This document shows, piece after piece, positions 4,139-63,817 of a DNA stretch of 64,000 nt. Positions within the stretch are counted from its first letter, which is position 1, and every line of letters starts with the position of its first letter. Source of the DNA: a phage; sequence record PZ049694.1; one strand, written 5' to 3'. A program made the position numbers and the translations under genes. The notes beneath the pieces are model-generated. The model saw only the letters and a program-made list of their open reading frames with translations. It was not told where the DNA came from and ran no database searches.

Positions 4139-4168
4139 ATTATACTCCAACCATCCTTGGTTGTAAAC
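4139..4168 (-). promoter_or_regulatory. T4 early-type promoter (GTTTAC -35, TATAAT -10) with inverted repeat (PeSL-like)
   Basis: minus strand GTTTAC, 18-nt spacer, TATAAT; ccaacc/ggttgg arms in the spacer. Confidence 0.5.
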
Positions 4169-5131: not shown

Positions 5132-5160
5132 ATTATACTCCAACCATCCTTGGTTGTACA
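5132..5160 (-). promoter_or_regulatory. early-type promoter cassette (same sequence family as 4139..4168)
   Basis: ttatactccaaccatccttggttgta repeated; minus-strand -10 TATAAT. Confidence 0.4.
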
Positions 5161-11249: not shown

Positions 11250-11409
11250 ACATTTGCAATTCGGAGTGGGCTTCGGCCATCTTTTTCATAGCTCTGTTAA
11301 TGTCGATGTCTCCATCTTCGCAACCATGAGCATTTTCCCAATCAGATACCGCATTAGCGTACTCTTCAATCAAAAACATTAACTTAGAAATTTTTTCTTT
11401 ACGTGACAT
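11230..11409 (-). CDS. hypothetical protein, 59 aa (start at MSRKEKISKL)
   Basis: track ORF runs through the promoter/terminator; internal ATG has a GAGGAG Shine-Dalgarno. Confidence 0.5.
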   Translation of the reverse strand: MSRKEKISKLMFLIEEYANAVSDWENAHGCEDGDIDINRAMKKMAEAHSELQMYVNEIM

Positions 11410-11413
11410 AACG

Positions 11414-11465
11414 TTCTCCTCTAGTAAGTAAGGACTACTATAACACAACCTGAGGAGAAGTAAAC
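11414..11465 (-). promoter_or_regulatory. PeSL-like early promoter whose hairpin pairs the downstream Shine-Dalgarno
   Basis: GTTTAC, 17-nt spacer, TATAGT; spacer arm ttctcctc pairs with gaggagaa (the Shine-Dalgarno of 11230..11409). Confidence 0.5.
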
Positions 11466-11473
11466 TGATAGAT

Positions 11474-11505
11474 GCCAAAAAGCCCCAACCATAAGGAAGG
11501 GGCTA
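11474..11505 (-). terminator. rho-independent terminator after rI
   Basis: minus strand agcccc-ttccttatggtt-ggggct then TTTTT; near-copy of the terminator at 27324..27355. Confidence 0.65.
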
Positions 11506-14579: not shown

Positions 14580-15038
14580 CTAGATTTTAATCACTGCTTT
14601 AGAAGCTTTTCCTGGTAGTCGTTTACTGTTAATAATAGCCATTCTGCATTGAAGAGTCTTCATTTTGAATGCTGGATTTTCGCGACAAACTGTAAGTCCT
14701 AGCCAAAGATTTCCATCAGTTATTTCTAAACGGCCTGGACGATATTCGACACCTTCGACAAAATCTTCATCAACATCTGGACGTGCCGGCATTGATAAAA
14801 ATTCTGCAACTTCTTTAACATGATTTTTTACTTTACGAAATAATTCAAAAACGTAGTTCTCATCTATTTCTCTCTGGATAGCACGATCTAAGAGATGTTG
14901 AGAATACTTGATATGAAAGCCTGGTAGTCCAAGAGACTTTGCAGCATCTTTTATACCGGCATTTATTTTGCGGAACTCCGTTTCAAAGATTCGACGGAGT
15001 TTATTACGGCGGATAAAAACGTCAGAATTGATAGTCAT
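14580..15038 (-). CDS. regB: RegB site-specific endoribonuclease
   Basis: 152 aa; MTIN..VFIRRNKLRR.FE.EFR.IN...KYSQHLLDRAIQREIDE.YVFELF...RLPGKASKAVIK matches recalled T4 RegB. Confidence 0.88.
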   Translation of the reverse strand: MTINSDVFIRRNKLRRIFETEFRKINAGIKDAAKSLGLPGFHIKYSQHLLDRAIQREIDENYVFELFRKVKNHVKEVAEFLSMPARPDVDEDFVEGVEYRPGRLEITDGNLWLGLTVCRENPAFKMKTLQCRMAIINSKRLPGKASKAVIKI

Positions 15039-15046
15039 TTTTGATT

Positions 15047-15096
15047 TCTCCTCTAGTTGACAGGTCTATAGTAACACAACTAGAGGAGAAGTAAAC
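15047..15096 (-). promoter_or_regulatory. PeSL-like early promoter with 13-bp stem pairing the regB Shine-Dalgarno
   Basis: GTTTAC, 17 nt, TACTAT; arms tctcctctagttg / caactagaggaga; the 3' arm holds the regB GAGGAG. Confidence 0.55.
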
Positions 15097-25771: not shown

Positions 25772-25817
25772 TTTGTTTTCCTCTTGATTTGATAGGACTA
25801 CTATAACATAAACTTAC

Positions 25818-25982
25818 TTAGATGTAAATTATTTCAACGTCACCTTTAGCTGCTTTATAACCTTCAGCCCAAGATACAACAGAGTTTTTATCTGAGGATT
25901 CAAATTCAGGCATTGGGCTTTCGCCAATGTTCACACAGTATGTTTCTTCATTTTCGTCAAACCAAATAATTAAAGTAGTCAT
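25818..25982 (-). CDS. hypothetical protein, 54 aa (start MTTLIIWF)
   Basis: ATG with GAGGAG Shine-Dalgarno lies inside a 42-nt cassette repeated at 62427..62468. Confidence 0.5.
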   Translation of the reverse strand: MTTLIIWFDENEETYCVNIGESPMPEFESSDKNSVVSWAEGYKAAKGDVEIIYI

Positions 25983-26040
25983 TTTGTTTACTCCTCTGTA
26001 GTTGATAAGTCTATAGTAACACCGTCCTTGGCGTTTGTAC
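25977..26040 (-). repeat. PeSL-like promoter/5'-UTR cassette, copy 1 (42 nt identical to 62427..62468)
   Basis: agtcattttgtttactcctctgtagttgataagtctatagta is identical at both loci and includes the Shine-Dalgarno, ATG and second codon of the downstream gene. Confidence 0.6.
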
Positions 26041-26041
26041 A

Positions 26042-27316: not shown

Positions 27317-27324
27317 TATTTATA
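27317..27324 (-). promoter_or_regulatory. late promoter TATAAATA upstream of the ipIII-like gene
   Basis: minus-strand TATAAATA about 35 nt upstream of the ATG. Confidence 0.4.
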
Positions 27325-27355
27325 CAAAAAAGCCCCAACCTTTCGGAAGGGGCTA
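27324..27355 (-). terminator. rho-independent terminator
   Basis: minus strand agcccc-ttccgaaaggtt-ggggct then TTTTTT. Confidence 0.65.
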
Positions 27356-29640: not shown

Positions 29641-29679
29641 GATAGGACTACTATAACATAGTCCTATCAGCGTGTAAAC
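29641..29679 (-). promoter_or_regulatory. PeSL-like early promoter (GTTTAC, 18 nt, TGtTATAGT) with 10-bp inverted repeat around the -10
   Basis: gataggacta / tagtcctatc arms, -10 in the loop. Confidence 0.55.
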
Positions 29680-29998: not shown

Positions 29999-30034
29999 AG
30001 GATGATAGTAACACACCATCATCCTTATGTAAAC
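29999..30034 (-). promoter_or_regulatory. PeSL-like early promoter (GTTTAC, 18 nt, TACTAT) with inverted repeat
   Basis: aggatgat / atcatcct arms around the -10. Confidence 0.5.
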
Positions 30035-41748: not shown

Positions 41749-42745
41749 TTCAAGTGTTATCTATCGTGCAATAGTTACATCAAAATTTAGAACAGAGAAA
41801 ATGCTGAATTTTTATAATTCAGTTGGGGATGGAGATGATAAGAACTCCATTTATATTACGTTTGGACGTTCAGAGCCTTGGGCGTCAAATGAAAATGAGG
41901 TGGGCTTCGCCCCACCTTATCCTACAGATTCTGTTCTTGGTGTTACTGATATGTGGACCCATATGATGGGTATCGTTAAAGTTTTACCTTCAATGTTAGA
42001 TTCTGTTATTCCTAGACGTGATTGGGGAGATGTGCGATATCCAGACCCTTACACGTTTAGAATTAACGATATAGTCGCATGTAATACTGCTCCGTACAAC
42101 GCGACAGAAGTTGGAGCCGGTTGGTTAATTTACCGTTGTTTAGATGTCCCTGACGTAGGGCTCTGTTCAATAGAATCTTTAGATAATAAAGATGAATGTC
42201 TTAAATTAGGTGGTAAATGGACCCCGTCTGTTCGTTCTATGTCTCCTCCTGAAGGCAGAGGCGATGCTAATGGGGTTATCGAAACCGGTGATGGATATAT
42301 TTGGGAATATCTTTATGAGATTCCTGCCGATGTGTCAATTAACCGTTGCACTAACGAATATCTTGTAGTTCCATGGCCGGAAGAAATTAAAGAAGACCCC
42401 ACCCGTTGGGGATATGAAAATAACTTAACTTGGCAACAAGATGACTACGGCTTGATTTACCGTGTTAAAGCTAATACGATGCGGTTTAAAGCATATTTTG
42501 ATTCTGTTTATTTCCCTGAGGCAGCTTTGCCTGGTAACAAGGGTTTTAGACAGATATCAATTATCGCAAACCCGTTAGAAGCTAAGAAAAATCCAAATGA
42601 CCCTAATGTTAAAGCAGAAAAGGATTATTACGACCCTAGAGACCTGCAACGTCATTCTGGTGAAATGATTTATATGGAAAACCGCCCACCTGTTATTATG
42701 GCAATGGACCAAACAGAAGAAATTAACATTTTGTTTATGTTTTAA
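41741..42745 (+). CDS. 8: baseplate wedge protein gp8
   Basis: 334 aa; synteny and size match T4 gp8. Confidence 0.85.
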   Translation: MNDSSVIYRAIVTSKFRTEKMLNFYNSVGDGDDKNSIYITFGRSEPWASNENEVGFAPPYPTDSVLGVTDMWTHMMGIVKVLPSMLDSVIPRRDWGDVRYPDPYTFRINDIVACNTAPYNATEVGAGWLIYRCLDVPDVGLCSIESLDNKDECLKLGGKWTPSVRSMSPPEGRGDANGVIETGDGYIWEYLYEIPADVSINRCTNEYLVVPWPEEIKEDPTRWGYENNLTWQQDDYGLIYRVKANTMRFKAYFDSVYFPEAALPGNKGFRQISIIANPLEAKKNPNDPNVKAEKDYYDPRDLQRHSGEMIYMENRPPVIMAMDQTEEINILFMF

Positions 42746-42748
42746 TTA

Positions 42749-42775
42749 GGGAGCCTTCGGGCTCCCATTTTTGTA
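42749..42775 (+). terminator. rho-independent terminator after gene 8
   Basis: gggagcc-TTCG-ggctccc then ATTTTTGT. Confidence 0.6.
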
Positions 42776-42777
42776 TC

Positions 42778-42785
42778 TATAAATA
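42778..42785 (+). promoter_or_regulatory. late promoter TATAAATA upstream of gene 9
   Basis: TATAAATA 33 nt upstream of the gene 9 ATG. Confidence 0.5.
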
Positions 42786-60541: not shown

Positions 60542-62110
60542 ATGACTACTATCAAAACTAAAGCTCAGCTCGTAGACAAATGGAAAGAACTGCTGGAAGG
60601 TGAAGGCCTGCCGGAAATCGCTAATAGCAAGCAGGCTATTATCGCTAAAATCTTCGAAAACCAGGAAAAAGATTTCGAAGTATCCCCTGAATATAAAGAC
60701 GAGAAAATCGCTCAGGCGTTTGGTTCTTTCTTGTCCGAAGCTGAAATTGGCGGTGACCATGGTTATAATGCTCAGAACATCGCAGCGGGTCAAACCTCTG
60801 GTGCAGTAACCCAAATTGGGCCGGCAGTTATGGGTATGGTTCGACGTGCTATTCCTAATCTGATCGCTTTTGATATTTGTGGTGTTCAGCCTATGAACAG
60901 CCCGACCGGTCAGGTATTTGCTCTCCGTGCAGTATATGGTAAAGACCCTATCGCTGCTGGCGCTAAAGAAGCTTTCCATCCGATGTATGCCCCAGACGCG
61001 ATGTTCTCTGGTCAGGGTGCTGCTAAGAAATTCCCAGCTCTGGCTGCTGACACTACTACTGTTGTAGGTGATATCTATACTCACTTCTTCCAAGAAACTG
61101 GTACTGTATATCTGCAAGCTTCTGCTGTCGTAACACTTGATTCTGGTGCAACTGATGCAGCTAAATTAGATGCAGAAGTTAAGAAACAAATGGAAGCTGG
61201 TGTACTGGTAGAAATCGCTGAAGGTATGGCTACTTCTATCGCTGAACTCCAGGAAGGTTTCAACGGTTCTACCGATAACCCATGGAATGAAATGGGCTTC
61301 CGTATCGATAAACAAGTTATCGAAGCTAAATCTCGCCAGCTGAAAGCTGCTTACTCTATCGAATTAGCACAAGACCTCCGTGCAGTACACGGTATGGATG
61401 CTGATGCTGAACTGAGCGGTATTCTGGCTACAGAAATTATGCTAGAAATCAACCGTGAAGTTGTTGATTGGATTAACTACTCTGCACAGGTTGGTAAATC
61501 TGGTATGACCCTGACTCCGGGTTCTAAAGCTGGTGTATTTGACTTCCAGGACCCGATTGATATCCGTGGTGCTCGTTGGGCCGGTGAAAGCTTTAAATCT
61601 CTGTTGTTCCAGATTGATAAAGAAGCAGTTGAAATTGCTCGTCAAACCGGTCGTGGTGAAGGTAACTTCATTATCGCTTCCCGTAACGTAGTTAACGTAC
61701 TGGCTTCAGTTGATACTGGTATTTCTTACGCTGCACAGGGCCTGGCTTCTGGTTTTAATACCGACACTACTAAATCTGTATTTGCCGGTGTACTTGGTGG
61801 TAAATACCGCGTATACATCGACCAGTATGCTAAACAGGATTACTTCACCGTTGGTTACAAAGGCGCTAACGAAATGGATGCAGGTATTTACTATGCTCCT
61901 TACGTTGCACTTACCCCACTGCGTGGTTCCGATCCTAAGAACTTCCAGCCGGTAATGGGCTTTAAAACTCGTTACGGTATCGGTGTTAACCCGTTTGCTG
62001 AAAGTTCCCTGCAGGCTCCAGGTGCTCGCATCCAGTCCGGTATGCCGTCTATCCTGAACAGCCTTGGTAAGAACGCTTACTTCCGCCGTGTATATGTAAA
62101 AGGCATCTAA
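60542..62110 (+). CDS. 23: major capsid protein gp23
   Basis: 522 aa; MTTIKTKAQLVDKWKELLEGEGLPEIANSKQAIIAKIFENQEKDFE matches recalled T4 gp23. Confidence 0.93.
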   Translation: MTTIKTKAQLVDKWKELLEGEGLPEIANSKQAIIAKIFENQEKDFEVSPEYKDEKIAQAFGSFLSEAEIGGDHGYNAQNIAAGQTSGAVTQIGPAVMGMVRRAIPNLIAFDICGVQPMNSPTGQVFALRAVYGKDPIAAGAKEAFHPMYAPDAMFSGQGAAKKFPALAADTTTVVGDIYTHFFQETGTVYLQASAVVTLDSGATDAAKLDAEVKKQMEAGVLVEIAEGMATSIAELQEGFNGSTDNPWNEMGFRIDKQVIEAKSRQLKAAYSIELAQDLRAVHGMDADAELSGILATEIMLEINREVVDWINYSAQVGKSGMTLTPGSKAGVFDFQDPIDIRGARWAGESFKSLLFQIDKEAVEIARQTGRGEGNFIIASRNVVNVLASVDTGISYAAQGLASGFNTDTTKSVFAGVLGGKYRVYIDQYAKQDYFTVGYKGANEMDAGIYYAPYVALTPLRGSDPKNFQPVMGFKTRYGIGVNPFAESSLQAPGARIQSGMPSILNSLGKNAYFRRVYVKGI

Positions 62111-62133
62111 TCTTAATTGATTAAATCTTATTT

Positions 62134-62165
62134 TGGGAGACTTCGGTCTCCCATTTTTGGTTTTA
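62134..62165 (+). terminator. rho-independent terminator after gene 23
   Basis: tgggagac-TTCG-gtctccca then TTTTTGGTTTT. Confidence 0.7.
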
Positions 62166-62432
62166 TTTCTGTGCAATTTCGATGTAAGTTTTCAAAATAT
62201 TTTGCCAATTAGGCATACCTTCTTGGACATATGCTAGAGAACCGTCTTTGTTTTTGAATGATGCAAGTTTATCAGTGGCCCAATAACCTTTAGCTCGAGC
62301 TTCAGAATCAACTTTCATCCATACTTTGTTGAAGGCATTACCATTAACTTTTGCACCATATTTTTCTACTAACTTAACTGCTTCAGCTTCTAGAACTTTT
62401 AAAGTATCTCGTAAGAAACGTGCTTTAGTCAT
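62163..62432 (-). CDS. small early-type gene between 23 and 24 on the opposite strand, 89 aa
   Basis: ORF MTKARFLRDTLKVLEAEAV... preceded by the PeSL cassette copy with GAGGAG Shine-Dalgarno. Confidence 0.6.
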   Translation of the reverse strand: MTKARFLRDTLKVLEAEAVKLVEKYGAKVNGNAFNKVWMKVDSEARAKGYWATDKLASFKNKDGSLAYVQEGMPNWQNILKTYIEIAQK

Positions 62433-62492
62433 TTTGTTTACTCCTCTGTAGTTGATAAGTCTATAGTATCACATACCAAATACGTTGTAAAC
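62427..62492 (-). repeat. PeSL-like promoter/5'-UTR cassette, copy 2 (42 nt identical to 25977..26018)
   Basis: identical 42-nt block including Shine-Dalgarno and ATG; minus-strand GTTTAC, 18 nt, TACTAT. Confidence 0.6.
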
Positions 62493-62498
62493 AATCTT

Positions 62499-62506
62499 TA
62501 TAAATA
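62499..62506 (+). promoter_or_regulatory. late promoter TATAAATA upstream of gene 24
   Basis: TATAAATA 28 nt upstream of the gene 24 ATG. Confidence 0.5.
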
Positions 62507-62533: not shown

Positions 62534-63817
62534 ATGAGTAAAATCCAAAAATTATTGCGTGAATCTACAACGTCTACTAGCAACTCAATTGGTCGCCCAA
62601 ATCTCGTTGCTTTGACTCGCGCTACGACTAAATTAATATATTCTGACATTGTAGCAACACAAAGAACTAATCAACCTGTTGCTGCTTTTTATGGTATCAA
62701 ATATCTTAACCCAGATAACGAATTCACATTTAAAACTGGCGCTACTTATGCGGGTGAAGTTGGATATGTAGACCGAGAAAAAATTACTGAGCTAACAGAA
62801 GAATCAAAAGTCACACTAAATAAAGGTGATTTTTTCAAATATAATAATATCGTCTATAAAGTGTTAGAAGATACACCATTTGCAGATATTCAAGAAAGTG
62901 ATCTAGAACTAGCTCTTCAGATTGCAGTCGTTCATTTAAAGGTACGGTTATTTTCAGATGCAGCGGTAACAAGCAAATTTGAAAGCTCCGATAGCGAAAT
63001 TTCTGATGCAAGATTCCAGATTAATAAATGGCAAACTTCAGTCAAATCACGTAAACTTAAAACTGGCCTCACGGTCGAATTAGCGCAAGATTTGGAAGCG
63101 AATGGATTTGATGCCCCTAACTTCTTAGAAGATTTGCTTGCTACTGAAATGGCTGATGAAATTAATAAAGATATTCTTCAGTCTTTAATTACTGTATCGA
63201 AACGTTATAAAGTTACTGGAATTACCGATACCGGATTTATTGACTTGAGCTATGCATCCGCTCCAGAAGCAGGTCGTTCATTATATCGAATGGTGTGTGA
63301 AATGGTATCGCACATTCAAAAAGAGACGACTTATACTGCAACGTTTTGTGTAGCCTCAGCTCGTGCGGCTGCTATTCTTGCTGCTTCCGGTTGGTTAAAA
63401 CATAAGCCAGAAGATGACAAGTATCTTTCACAAAATGCTTATGGATTCTTGGCAAATGGATTACCTCTTTACTGCGATACCAACAGTCCGTTAGATTATG
63501 TTATTGTAGGTGTTGTAGAAAATATCGGCGAAAAAGAAATTGTAGGGTCCATCTTTTATGCTCCATACACTGAAGGAGTAGATTTAGATGACCCGGAACA
63601 TGTCGGTGCTTTTAAAGTTGTAGTTGATCCAGAAAGCTTGCAACCGTCTATTGGATTATTGGTTAGATATGCTTTATCAGCAAATCCTTACACAGTAGCA
63701 AAAGACGAAAAAGAAGCGAGAATAATCGATGGTGGGGACATGGATAAAATGGCAGGACGTTCAGACTTGTCTGTTTTACTCGGTGTTAAGCTACCAAAAA
63801 TTATCATTGATGAATAA
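62534..63817 (+). CDS. 24: capsid vertex protein gp24
   Basis: 427 aa, same length as T4 gp24; gp23-like fold expected from synteny. Confidence 0.9.
   Translation: MSKIQKLLRESTTSTSNSIGRPNLVALTRATTKLIYSDIVATQRTNQPVAAFYGIKYLNPDNEFTFKTGATYAGEVGYVDREKITELTEESKVTLNKGDFFKYNNIVYKVLEDTPFADIQESDLELALQIAVVHLKVRLFSDAAVTSKFESSDSEISDARFQINKWQTSVKSRKLKTGLTVELAQDLEANGFDAPNFLEDLLATEMADEINKDILQSLITVSKRYKVTGITDTGFIDLSYASAPEAGRSLYRMVCEMVSHIQKETTYTATFCVASARAAAILAASGWLKHKPEDDKYLSQNAYGFLANGLPLYCDTNSPLDYVIVGVVENIGEKEIVGSIFYAPYTEGVDLDDPEHVGAFKVVVDPESLQPSIGLLVRYALSANPYTVAKDEKEARIIDGGDMDKMAGRSDLSVLLGVKLPKIIIDE

Follow-up and report, generated by a model that had tools for sequence, protein, structure and literature searches.

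A 43-nt promoter and leader tract shared by two small early-type genes 36 kb apart in an RB69-like phage

The tract and the two genes it precedes

The window analysed here, 64,000 nt of phage DNA from sequence record PZ049694.1, contains two small minus-strand genes that begin with the same stretch of promoter and leader sequence. The first (25818..25982) encodes a 54-aa accessory protein beginning MTTL (RB69ORF145c, PST ORF130, phrog_5461). The second (62163..62432) encodes an 89-aa protein beginning MTKA (phrog_6003, the family of JS98 orf173 and VR7ORF190c) and lies antisense between genes 23 and 24. Assigned from the annotated relative SA79RD, gene 23 encodes the major capsid protein (60542..62110, plus strand) and gene 24 the capsid vertex protein (62534..63817, plus strand). 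Both loci match RB69-like phages of the genus Mosigvirus: identity is 100% at the 23/24 locus (with HX01, JS09, PNJ-6 and 308Ecol101PP) and 98.3% at the first locus (with HY126). For the function of the two proteins, the only matches were PHROG families of unknown function and one sub-threshold DUF4859 match.

The tract is an exact 43-nt direct repeat. Positions 25976-26018 (copy 1) are identical to positions 62426-62468 (copy 2), on the same strand and 36,450 bp apart. A preliminary description of this DNA had reported an identical block of 42 nt at the two loci; this 42-mer (25977-26018 and 62427-62468) does occur twice in the window and was matched in none of 100 shuffles, and the exact identity extends to 43 nt. 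Near-identity reaches 46 of 47 positions over 25976-26022 and 62426-62472, the one difference being A versus T at 26019/62469. The copy count covers the 64-kb window of this genome; complete relatives have at most two copies.

In the sense orientation, copy 1 reads TGTACA, 17 nt, TACTAT AGACTTATCAA CTACA GAGGAG TAAACAAA ATG ACT ACT, leading into the 54-aa gene. Copy 2 reads TTTACA, 17 nt, TACTAT, sequence identical to copy 1 through ATG ACT, and then AAA, leading into the 89-aa gene. As first described, the block holds the -10 hexamer, the leader, the GAGGAG Shine-Dalgarno (SD) sequence, the ATG and the Thr codon of two different genes. In copy 1 these are: TACTAT at 26018-26013; a predicted transcription start near A26006; GAGGAG at 25996-25991; ATG at 25982-25980; and ACT followed by A. 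In copy 2 they are: TACTAT at 62468-62463; a predicted start near A62456; GAGGAG at 62446-62441; ATG at 62432-62430; and again ACT followed by A. GAGGAG stands 8 nt from the ATG in both copies, and the leader between the start region and the ATG is 24 nt long. Sharing past the ATG amounts to 4 nt only. The proposal that the exchanged unit includes the start of the coding sequence is upheld to that extent; such a reach is already known for promoter-early stem-loop (PeSL) cassettes and is not new.

The sequences upstream of the -10 hexamer are unrelated. The -35 box of copy 1 (TGTACA, 26041-26036) and its 17-nt spacer occupy 26019..26041 on the minus strand; they are absent from copy 2 and also precede the 54-aa gene in T2/PST-type phages. 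The -35 box of copy 2 (TTTACA, 62491-62486) and its 17-nt spacer, which carries a TG extended -10, occupy 62469..62491 on the minus strand; they are absent from copy 1, and this -35 block is kept in RB69, JS98, VR7 and T4. Because the -35 boxes and spacers are unrelated and the tract starts at the -10 hexamer, only the 3' half of the cassette is common to the two copies, and the promoter is shared from the -10 onward rather than as a whole. Each block forms the 3' half of a different member of the T4-type family of early-promoter/leader cassettes in an RB69-like phage.

The window provides an internal measure of how alike such cassettes are. About 21 early-type promoter/leader cassettes lie on its minus strand, and among these the runner-up ungapped match to the 43-mer is 30 of 43. 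For the 26-nt leader/SD/start part, no second match of at least 18/26 was present in the window. An identity of 43/43, set against 30/43 for the next best and an otherwise unmatched leader, indicates a specific event and not general family conservation.

Both copies also qualify as T4-type early promoters under the Miller 2003 consensus as used in record OL960576, which calls for a GTTTAC -35 region, a TAnnnT -10, correct spacing and a correctly oriented open reading frame (ORF) downstream. Copy 2 has GTTTAC and TACTAT, and copy 1 has the variant ATGTAC/TGTACA. A consensus scan gave copy 2 a score of 9/12; its spacer is 17 nt long and a TG extends the -10. Copy 2 carries a T4-type early promoter annotation in the SA79RD record, and Nolan et al. 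(2006, PMC1524935, additional file 3) list the RB69 orthologs among their predicted early promoters, as Pe:72567 (copy 1) and Pe:109605 (copy 2). The searched text and supplements of that paper, which give coordinates and logos, contain no mention of identity between Pe:72567 and Pe:109605 or of recombination. Taken in aggregate, each copy is most likely an early promoter for the host sigma-70 RNA polymerase joined to the translation initiation region of a small accessory gene. We infer promoter activity, early timing and translation start from consensus, position, homology and the earlier RB69 prediction.

The two loci in related phages

A 47-mer version of the cassette (GTGATACTAT...ATGACTA) was located by megablast at 227 places in 142 phage records, with at most two per record, and all of these records are Escherichia or Shigella phages of the RB69-like group. 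As megablast needs a 28-nt exact word, diverged copies are missed in these counts. Most RB69-like (Mosigvirus) genomes, RB69 included, carry both copies, as do two genome-length metagenome contigs. In every collection searched, the cassette precedes the 54-aa and 89-aa genes only. A metagenome scan with the 19-nt SD/ATG core returned 20 loci: five were the phage cassette, always before one of these two genes, and the remainder were unrelated chance matches in other organisms. In IMG/VR, a protein-guided search found the 54-aa gene at three loci and the 89-aa gene at none, and a DNA scan found the cassette at one locus; this yield is too small, and the survey is based on annotated GenBank records. 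Such restriction to two genes speaks against a promoter that moves freely, and the wide mobility implied at first was not borne out.

The two copies vary separately from one another. LNA2 has CAGTGGAG in copy 1 and TATAAACTT in copy 2; the OCHD contig has GTGGTACTAT in copy 1 and a canonical copy 2; and RB69 has a canonical copy 1 and three substitutions in copy 2, with its 89-aa ORF split into ORF188c and ORF189c. No derived change common to both copies of one genome was seen in a small sample of six genomes in which both copies were read. There is no sign of ongoing conversion, and these patterns would be fitted best by one old event followed by slow independent drift. The broken 89-aa gene of RB69 (109291-109531) represents either decay in that isolate or errors in the old sequence.

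Comparison of T4-like genomes at the 23/24 junction bears on how the 89-aa gene came to lie there. Homologs with 32-37% identity are resident in JS98 (Dhakavirus) and VR7 (Gaprivervirus), collinear, in the same gap and on the same antisense strand, each with an early promoter and leader of its own; T4 has segD in this gap. On the gene 24 side, the late promoter of gene 24 (TATAAATA, 62499..62506, plus strand) directly adjoins, in the opposite orientation, the AT-rich stretch and -35 box at the upstream side of copy 2. SA79RD annotates it along with the early promoter of copy 2, in the region 62463-62506, and the late promoter divergent from copy 2 in RB69 was predicted as Pl:109573 (PMC1524935). 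In the alignment, the block formed by this late promoter and the antisense -35 box, TATTTAT(A)AA..TT.TTTACA, is invariant across RB69-type phages, JS98, VR7 and T4. Collinear homologs in three genera, together with the invariant upstream block, indicate that the 89-aa gene and an early promoter are ancestral to the 23/24 gap. The shared tract therefore did not bring the 89-aa gene there, and the suggestion that the cassette had placed an early gene between genes 23 and 24 fails. What does hold is that copy 2 precedes an 89-aa ORF antisense to the capsid genes, in the slot of T4 segD and on the same strand as segD.

The possibility that the 89-aa ORF is a decayed segD was rejected, as the ORF gives no alignment to T4 SegD. 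It also has no GIY-YIG match, and the 23/24 gap of the window is not a segD-type locus with a GIY-YIG endonuclease. In T4 itself (NC_000866, 107253-107281, minus strand), the sequence upstream of segD reads TTTACA, 17 nt, TATTAT, a 10/12 match with a TG extended -10. This promoter-like sequence is the positional homolog of the 23/24-gap early promoter in RB69-type phages, JS98 and VR7; according to a 2010 review, no segD-specific promoter had been identified (Edgell et al., PMC2988022). The annotations of JS98 and VR7 show gene 24 twice, in tandem, beside the small antisense ORF; the window and RB69 have it once.

A natural recombinant at copy 2 is found in the Mosigviruses LF82-5 and LF82-9. 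Their gap is Mosigvirus-type as far as ...CTACAGAGGAG and JS98-type from ATTAAAAATGAACAAG on, and is followed by a gene for a 219-aa homing endonuclease. In LF82-5, the gene 24 side and promoter are 95.8% identical to the window, as compared to 69.7% to JS98. The small ORF, at 93.8% identity, follows JS98 and shows no meaningful match to the window ORF at the nucleotide level, and the first 32 nt past the endonuclease gene are identical to JS98. As the sequence is Mosigvirus-type up to GAGGAG and JS98-type after it, the left junction of this inter-genus replacement is the SD of copy 2. The endonuclease is 57% identical to T4 SegD (E = 3e-86), and among Mosigviruses an endonuclease gene at the 23/24 gap occurs in LF82-5/-9-type relatives only. 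In these two phages (PV660449/PV660452, 10382-11311) the SegD homolog sits directly behind the JS98-type allele of the small ORF; with their endonuclease-free relatives, whose flanks are ~96% identical, they make up a natural set for tests of SegD-type homing or of marker exclusion.

The 54-aa gene at the first locus, which occurs in 285 phage records, is in Mosigviruses a presence/absence module of 212 bp, carried by HY126 and absent from 308Ecol101PP. The right-hand partner of copy 1 in this indel is the promoter/leader cassette of frd.3 (25772..25828, minus strand; TTTACA, 17 nt, TATAGT, GAGGA, AAACAAAATG), and the 212-bp deletion falls between the near-repeats GAGGA(G)(T)AAACAAAATG. In the gene-less forms (308Ecol101PP, JQD51 and Ec3-ASingh), the promoter/leader of copy 1 joins frd.3 directly through the junction GAGGAG.AAACAAAATGGCT, which places the breakpoint within the SD/ATG spacer common to copy 1 and the frd.3 cassette. 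This junction is present on two upstream backgrounds, that of 308Ecol101PP and that of JQD51 and Ec3-ASingh. As excision is insertion reversed, either form, with or without the 54-aa gene, may be the ancestral one.

The same module can be followed into the genus Tequatrovirus. Between PST and the window, the promoter from the -35 to TATCAA is identical at 38 of 40 positions and the 54-aa coding sequence is 94.3% identical, with one amino-acid change; the neighbouring e.6 gene is 79.8% identical. The homology runs from the 54-aa gene's own -35 box to the -35 box of the next promoter, that of frd.3, which forms its right end; within it, the leader from TATCAA to ATG differs. Homology edges at two -35 boxes indicate that the 54-aa gene and its promoter are a laterally exchanged unit, bounded by promoter motifs, between Mosigvirus and Tequatrovirus. 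The neighbours of the gene change from phage to phage: upstream are e.8 (PST and T2), ORF146c (RB69) or a 167-aa gene (the window), and downstream are e.6, a 111-aa gene or frd.3.

Origin of the identity

The identity is probably the footprint of a single old exchange between two cassettes, through either ectopic homologous recombination or gene conversion, in an ancestor of those Mosigviruses that were sampled. Such an exchange would have been anchored on short blocks of the cassette family, with the -10/start box TAYTATAGACYTATCAA as left anchor and AAATGACTA as right anchor. Copies 1 and 2 have since drifted independently. As the comparisons show, the same conserved blocks are crossover points elsewhere, namely in the 212-bp gain or loss of the 54-aa gene, in the inter-genus transfer of this gene, with -35 boxes as the bounds, and where a JS98-type allele with a segD-like endonuclease gene has replaced the 89-aa gene, the join being at the SD. 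In the mini-circles of RB49/phi1, crossovers have been demonstrated in the interval from the -10 to the ATG and in that from the -10 to the SD (PMC2839356).

Several points weigh against this account. The match of copy 1 to the promoter consensus is weak, at 8/12, which is under the scan threshold and hence went unreported by the scan, and no usable published transcription starts or transcriptomes for RB69-type phages were found in the literature. The tract, at 43-47 nt, is at or below the ~50 bp reported to be enough for recombination in T4 (Singer 1982, as cited in PMC2839356). Selection for a good promoter and ribosome-binding site may have helped to keep the copies alike. The direction of transfer is also ambiguous. 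Transfer from copy 1 to copy 2 is favoured by the T in GACTTATCAA and the ATGACTA start, which accompany the 54-aa gene in both genera, and by all other homologs of the 89-aa protein, which start MNK and not MTK. Transfer from copy 2 to copy 1 is favoured by the differing leader of the Tequatrovirus 54-aa gene, which one replacement, with TAYTATAGACTTATCAA and AAATGACTA as its anchors, would account for. In a leader alignment, the Mosigvirus leader was no closer to the Tequatrovirus ORF130 or JS98 orf173 leaders than to other window cassettes, and no Mosigvirus was found with a Tequatrovirus-type leader on the 54-aa gene.

Other origins of the identity have been weighed against the same data. 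Under convergence or purifying selection, each gene would independently have arrived at, or retained, an identical -10, leader and ribosome-binding site as the optimum for early expression. The -10/start box and the GGAG-type SD do occur family-wide, and 3 of the 19 other cassettes likewise have ACT as second codon; nevertheless, the ~19 other early cassettes of the window have different leaders, all below the 18/26 level, variants are tolerated in either copy (LNA2, RB69, OCHD and IMG/VR contigs), and in 166 Tequatrovirus records the 54-aa gene functions behind another leader. This makes convergence or selection highly improbable as the source of the identity. A shared cis-regulatory operator, preserved by one trans-acting post-transcriptional factor (for example RegB, cleaving at GGAG, or a RegA-like repressor) and defining a two-gene early regulon, would account for the identity of the whole leader and translation initiation region, and GGAG inside an SD is a known target motif of T4 RegB (PMC3014915). 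Such a regulon is very unlikely, given that GGAG SDs occur in many cassettes, independent changes accumulate in the two copies, the 54-aa gene is dispensable and often deleted, and a conserved leader structure is absent.

Two further proposals invoke mobile elements. A mobile PeSL cassette or mini-circle could have brought the 89-aa early gene into the capsid block, given that this gene is antisense and early-type, that its gap accepts a mobile gene (segD in T4), and that cassette-bounded single-gene modules such as the 212-bp unit of the 54-aa gene exist. The collinear homologs in the JS98 and VR7 gap (32-37% identical, on the same strand and with their own leaders), an upstream late-promoter/-35 block invariant across four genera including T4, and an identity that begins only at the -10 leave this arrival with very little probability. 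Alternatively, seg-type breaks (SegD-like at 23/24, and SegB near the tRNA region) and their repair could have made the two copies identical by homing-endonuclease co-conversion. LF82-5 and LF82-9, with a SegD homolog beside a swapped allele whose left junction is inside copy 2, lend this some plausibility, as does the position of PST segB ~0.9 kb from ORF130. It is quite unlikely all the same: the window and most two-copy genomes have no endonuclease gene at either locus, and break repair templates on the allelic site of a co-infecting genome, not on a site 36 kb off. An assembly or chimeric-read artefact has a negligible probability. Both copies recur, with lineage-specific variants, in scores of independently sequenced genomes and in metagenome contigs (142 records, and two contigs with both copies), which excludes an error of assembly.

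A stronger form of the ectopic exchange can also be considered. The cassette blocks (the -10/start box TAYTATAGNCYTATCAA and the GAGGAG SD) might be preferred, possibly actively targeted, crossover sites. One dedicated mechanism of non-reciprocal exchange, acting across tens of kb, genera and the capsid block, would then have produced the identity of the two copies, the LF82 chimera and the recurrent 54-aa deletion junction, in place of occasional general recombination at short homologies. This is unlikely.

Relation to known cassettes and exchange systems

In PeSL elements the stem-loop lies mostly between the two promoter boxes (-35 and -10) or over the -10 (Arbiol et al. 2010, PMC2839356), or just upstream of the promoter (Comeau et al. 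2014, PMC4122927). Both studies include the SD and start codon in the element, and the phage pairs that they analysed did not include RB69-like phages. The preliminary description had assigned the shared tract to this class, and in several respects the assignment is apt. Both copies have an early promoter of the sigma-70-like kind expected of PeSLs (-35 TTTACW or TTGACA, ~17 nt, -10 TAYWAT), with TGTACA as the -35 of copy 1, an AT-rich stretch 5' of the -35 (AAAATTAAAAATAAATGA ahead of copy 1 and ATAGATTATTTATAAAGATTG ahead of copy 2), and an SD and start codon at the cassette 3' end. Copy 1 is accompanied, as PeSLs are mainly in hyperplastic regions, by indels and replacements of small accessory ORFs; copy 2 sits in the head-gene block, where the gap exists in three states. 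Breakpoints fall inside the cassette: at the SD (LF82-5/-9), in the SD/ATG spacer (308Ecol101PP and JQD51), and at TATCAA and the -35 boxes (relative to PST). Also as in PeSLs, dispersed family members flank small accessory ORFs, and the crossover zone extends from the -10 to the ATG/SD, as in the sequenced RB49 mini-circles.

The stem-loop is the part of the assignment that is not supported. Folding of the 75 nt upstream was no better than that of shuffles (z = +0.34 for copy 1 and -0.51 for copy 2), nor was a stem-loop evident in the promoter regions (z = -0.89 and -1.46, respectively, relative to shuffles). The best hairpin at either copy has 5 Watson-Crick pairs, a chance level (P = 0.35 for copy 1 and 0.60 for copy 2). 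At the equivalent position, eight other cassettes of the window have hairpins of 8-11 Watson-Crick pairs (P <= 0.02). These early cassettes are on the minus strand, with -35 boxes starting at 30033, 29678, 25543, 22735, 21444, 21175, 11012 and 6801, and folding z-scores are -4.9 and -4.2 for those at 29678 and 21444. In all eight, one arm lies in the -35/-10 spacer and the other over or just past the -10; arm sequences vary and complementarity is kept, as in the pairs TGATAGGACTA/TAGTCCTATCA, AGGTCTGTAGT/ACTATAGACCT and AGGATGATGGT/ACTATCATCCT. The layout is that of RB49-type PeSLs, found here in an RB69-like phage. With eight significant hairpins and none at copies 1 and 2, the genome has full PeSL-type elements, and the two copies are promoter/leader cassettes without a stem-loop, resembling the degraded or half PeSLs of Comeau et al. 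They differ from PeSLs in three further ways: only the 3' half is shared; the copies lie 36 kb apart across a structural gene block and are not neighbours in one hyperplastic region; and copy 2 is inside a conserved head-gene module.

Two other T4 systems are comparable. With the segD locus and the free-standing GIY-YIG genes of T4 (PMC2988022), the 89-aa gene has in common the 23/24 slot and the antisense orientation. In addition, some Mosigviruses (LF82-5/-9) have a SegD homolog there, and the exchange of the adjoining allele resembles co-conversion. In contrast, the window has no endonuclease gene, the 89-aa protein is dissimilar to SegD, and the identity of copies 1 and 2 is ectopic, not allelic. 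T4 also undergoes exchanges and deletions between patches of homology shorter than ~50 bp (Singer et al. 1982 and Mosig et al. 1998, as cited in PMC2839356). Unlike these, the short homologies of the RB69-like case are functional promoter and ribosome-binding-site motifs, so that the products of recombination stay expressed.

Further pairings and repeats were observed in the window. The -35 region of copy 2, TTGTTTAC (62486-62493), is the reverse complement of GTAAACAA, between its SD and ATG (62436-62443); the two form an 8-bp long-range pairing in the minimum-energy fold, which is not significant relative to shuffles (z = -1.46). In the cassette ahead of a 152-aa gene (15036-15095, minus strand), the promoter spacer UCUCCUCUAG pairs with the SD region CUAGAGGAGA in a 14-bp hairpin (-21.6 kcal/mol, z = -5.4), and a weaker case lies at 11407-11464. 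The SD at 15036-15095 would be sequestered only in read-through transcripts from upstream and not in those from its own promoter, an arrangement that resembles the one known for T4 e and I-TevI. An exact 27-nt repeat, TACAACCAAGGATGGTTGGAGTATAAT on the sense strand (4139-4165 and 5132-5158), forms the -35, spacer and -10 of two adjacent genes of ~310 aa, one of them DUF7235. Its block CCAAGGATGGT recurs in the spacer of the RB69-type copy 1, which suggests that promoter 5' halves may be shuffled too. Between the ends of gene 23 and the 89-aa gene lies a GC-rich hairpin, GGGAGAC TTCG GTCTCCC (62134..62153), the gene 23 terminator, which is conserved in JS98 and LF82-5. A terminator family, GGGAGNCTTCGGNCTCCC, occurs after gene 8 and after gene 23 (42731-42780 and 62117-62166), and a second GC-rich family, AAAAGCCCCAACC...GGAAGGGGCT, occurs at early-region sites 11472-11505 and 27322-27355.

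The process in question, recombination between dispersed early-promoter cassettes, is already described for T4-type phages; the two copies are a clean example of it and not a new phenomenon, and the current picture of T4-type genome evolution is unchanged. The model of PeSL and early-cassette shuffling is extended, with junctions at the nucleotide level, to RB69-like phages, which are used in phage therapy collections. Exchange partners can sit 36 kb apart and within the head-gene module. As the ribosome-binding site can be a crossover point, genes that are swapped remain expressed. Mosigviruses that carry or lack the 54-aa module, and that have or are without a SegD-like gene beside alternative 23/24 alleles, provide natural material for experimental work.

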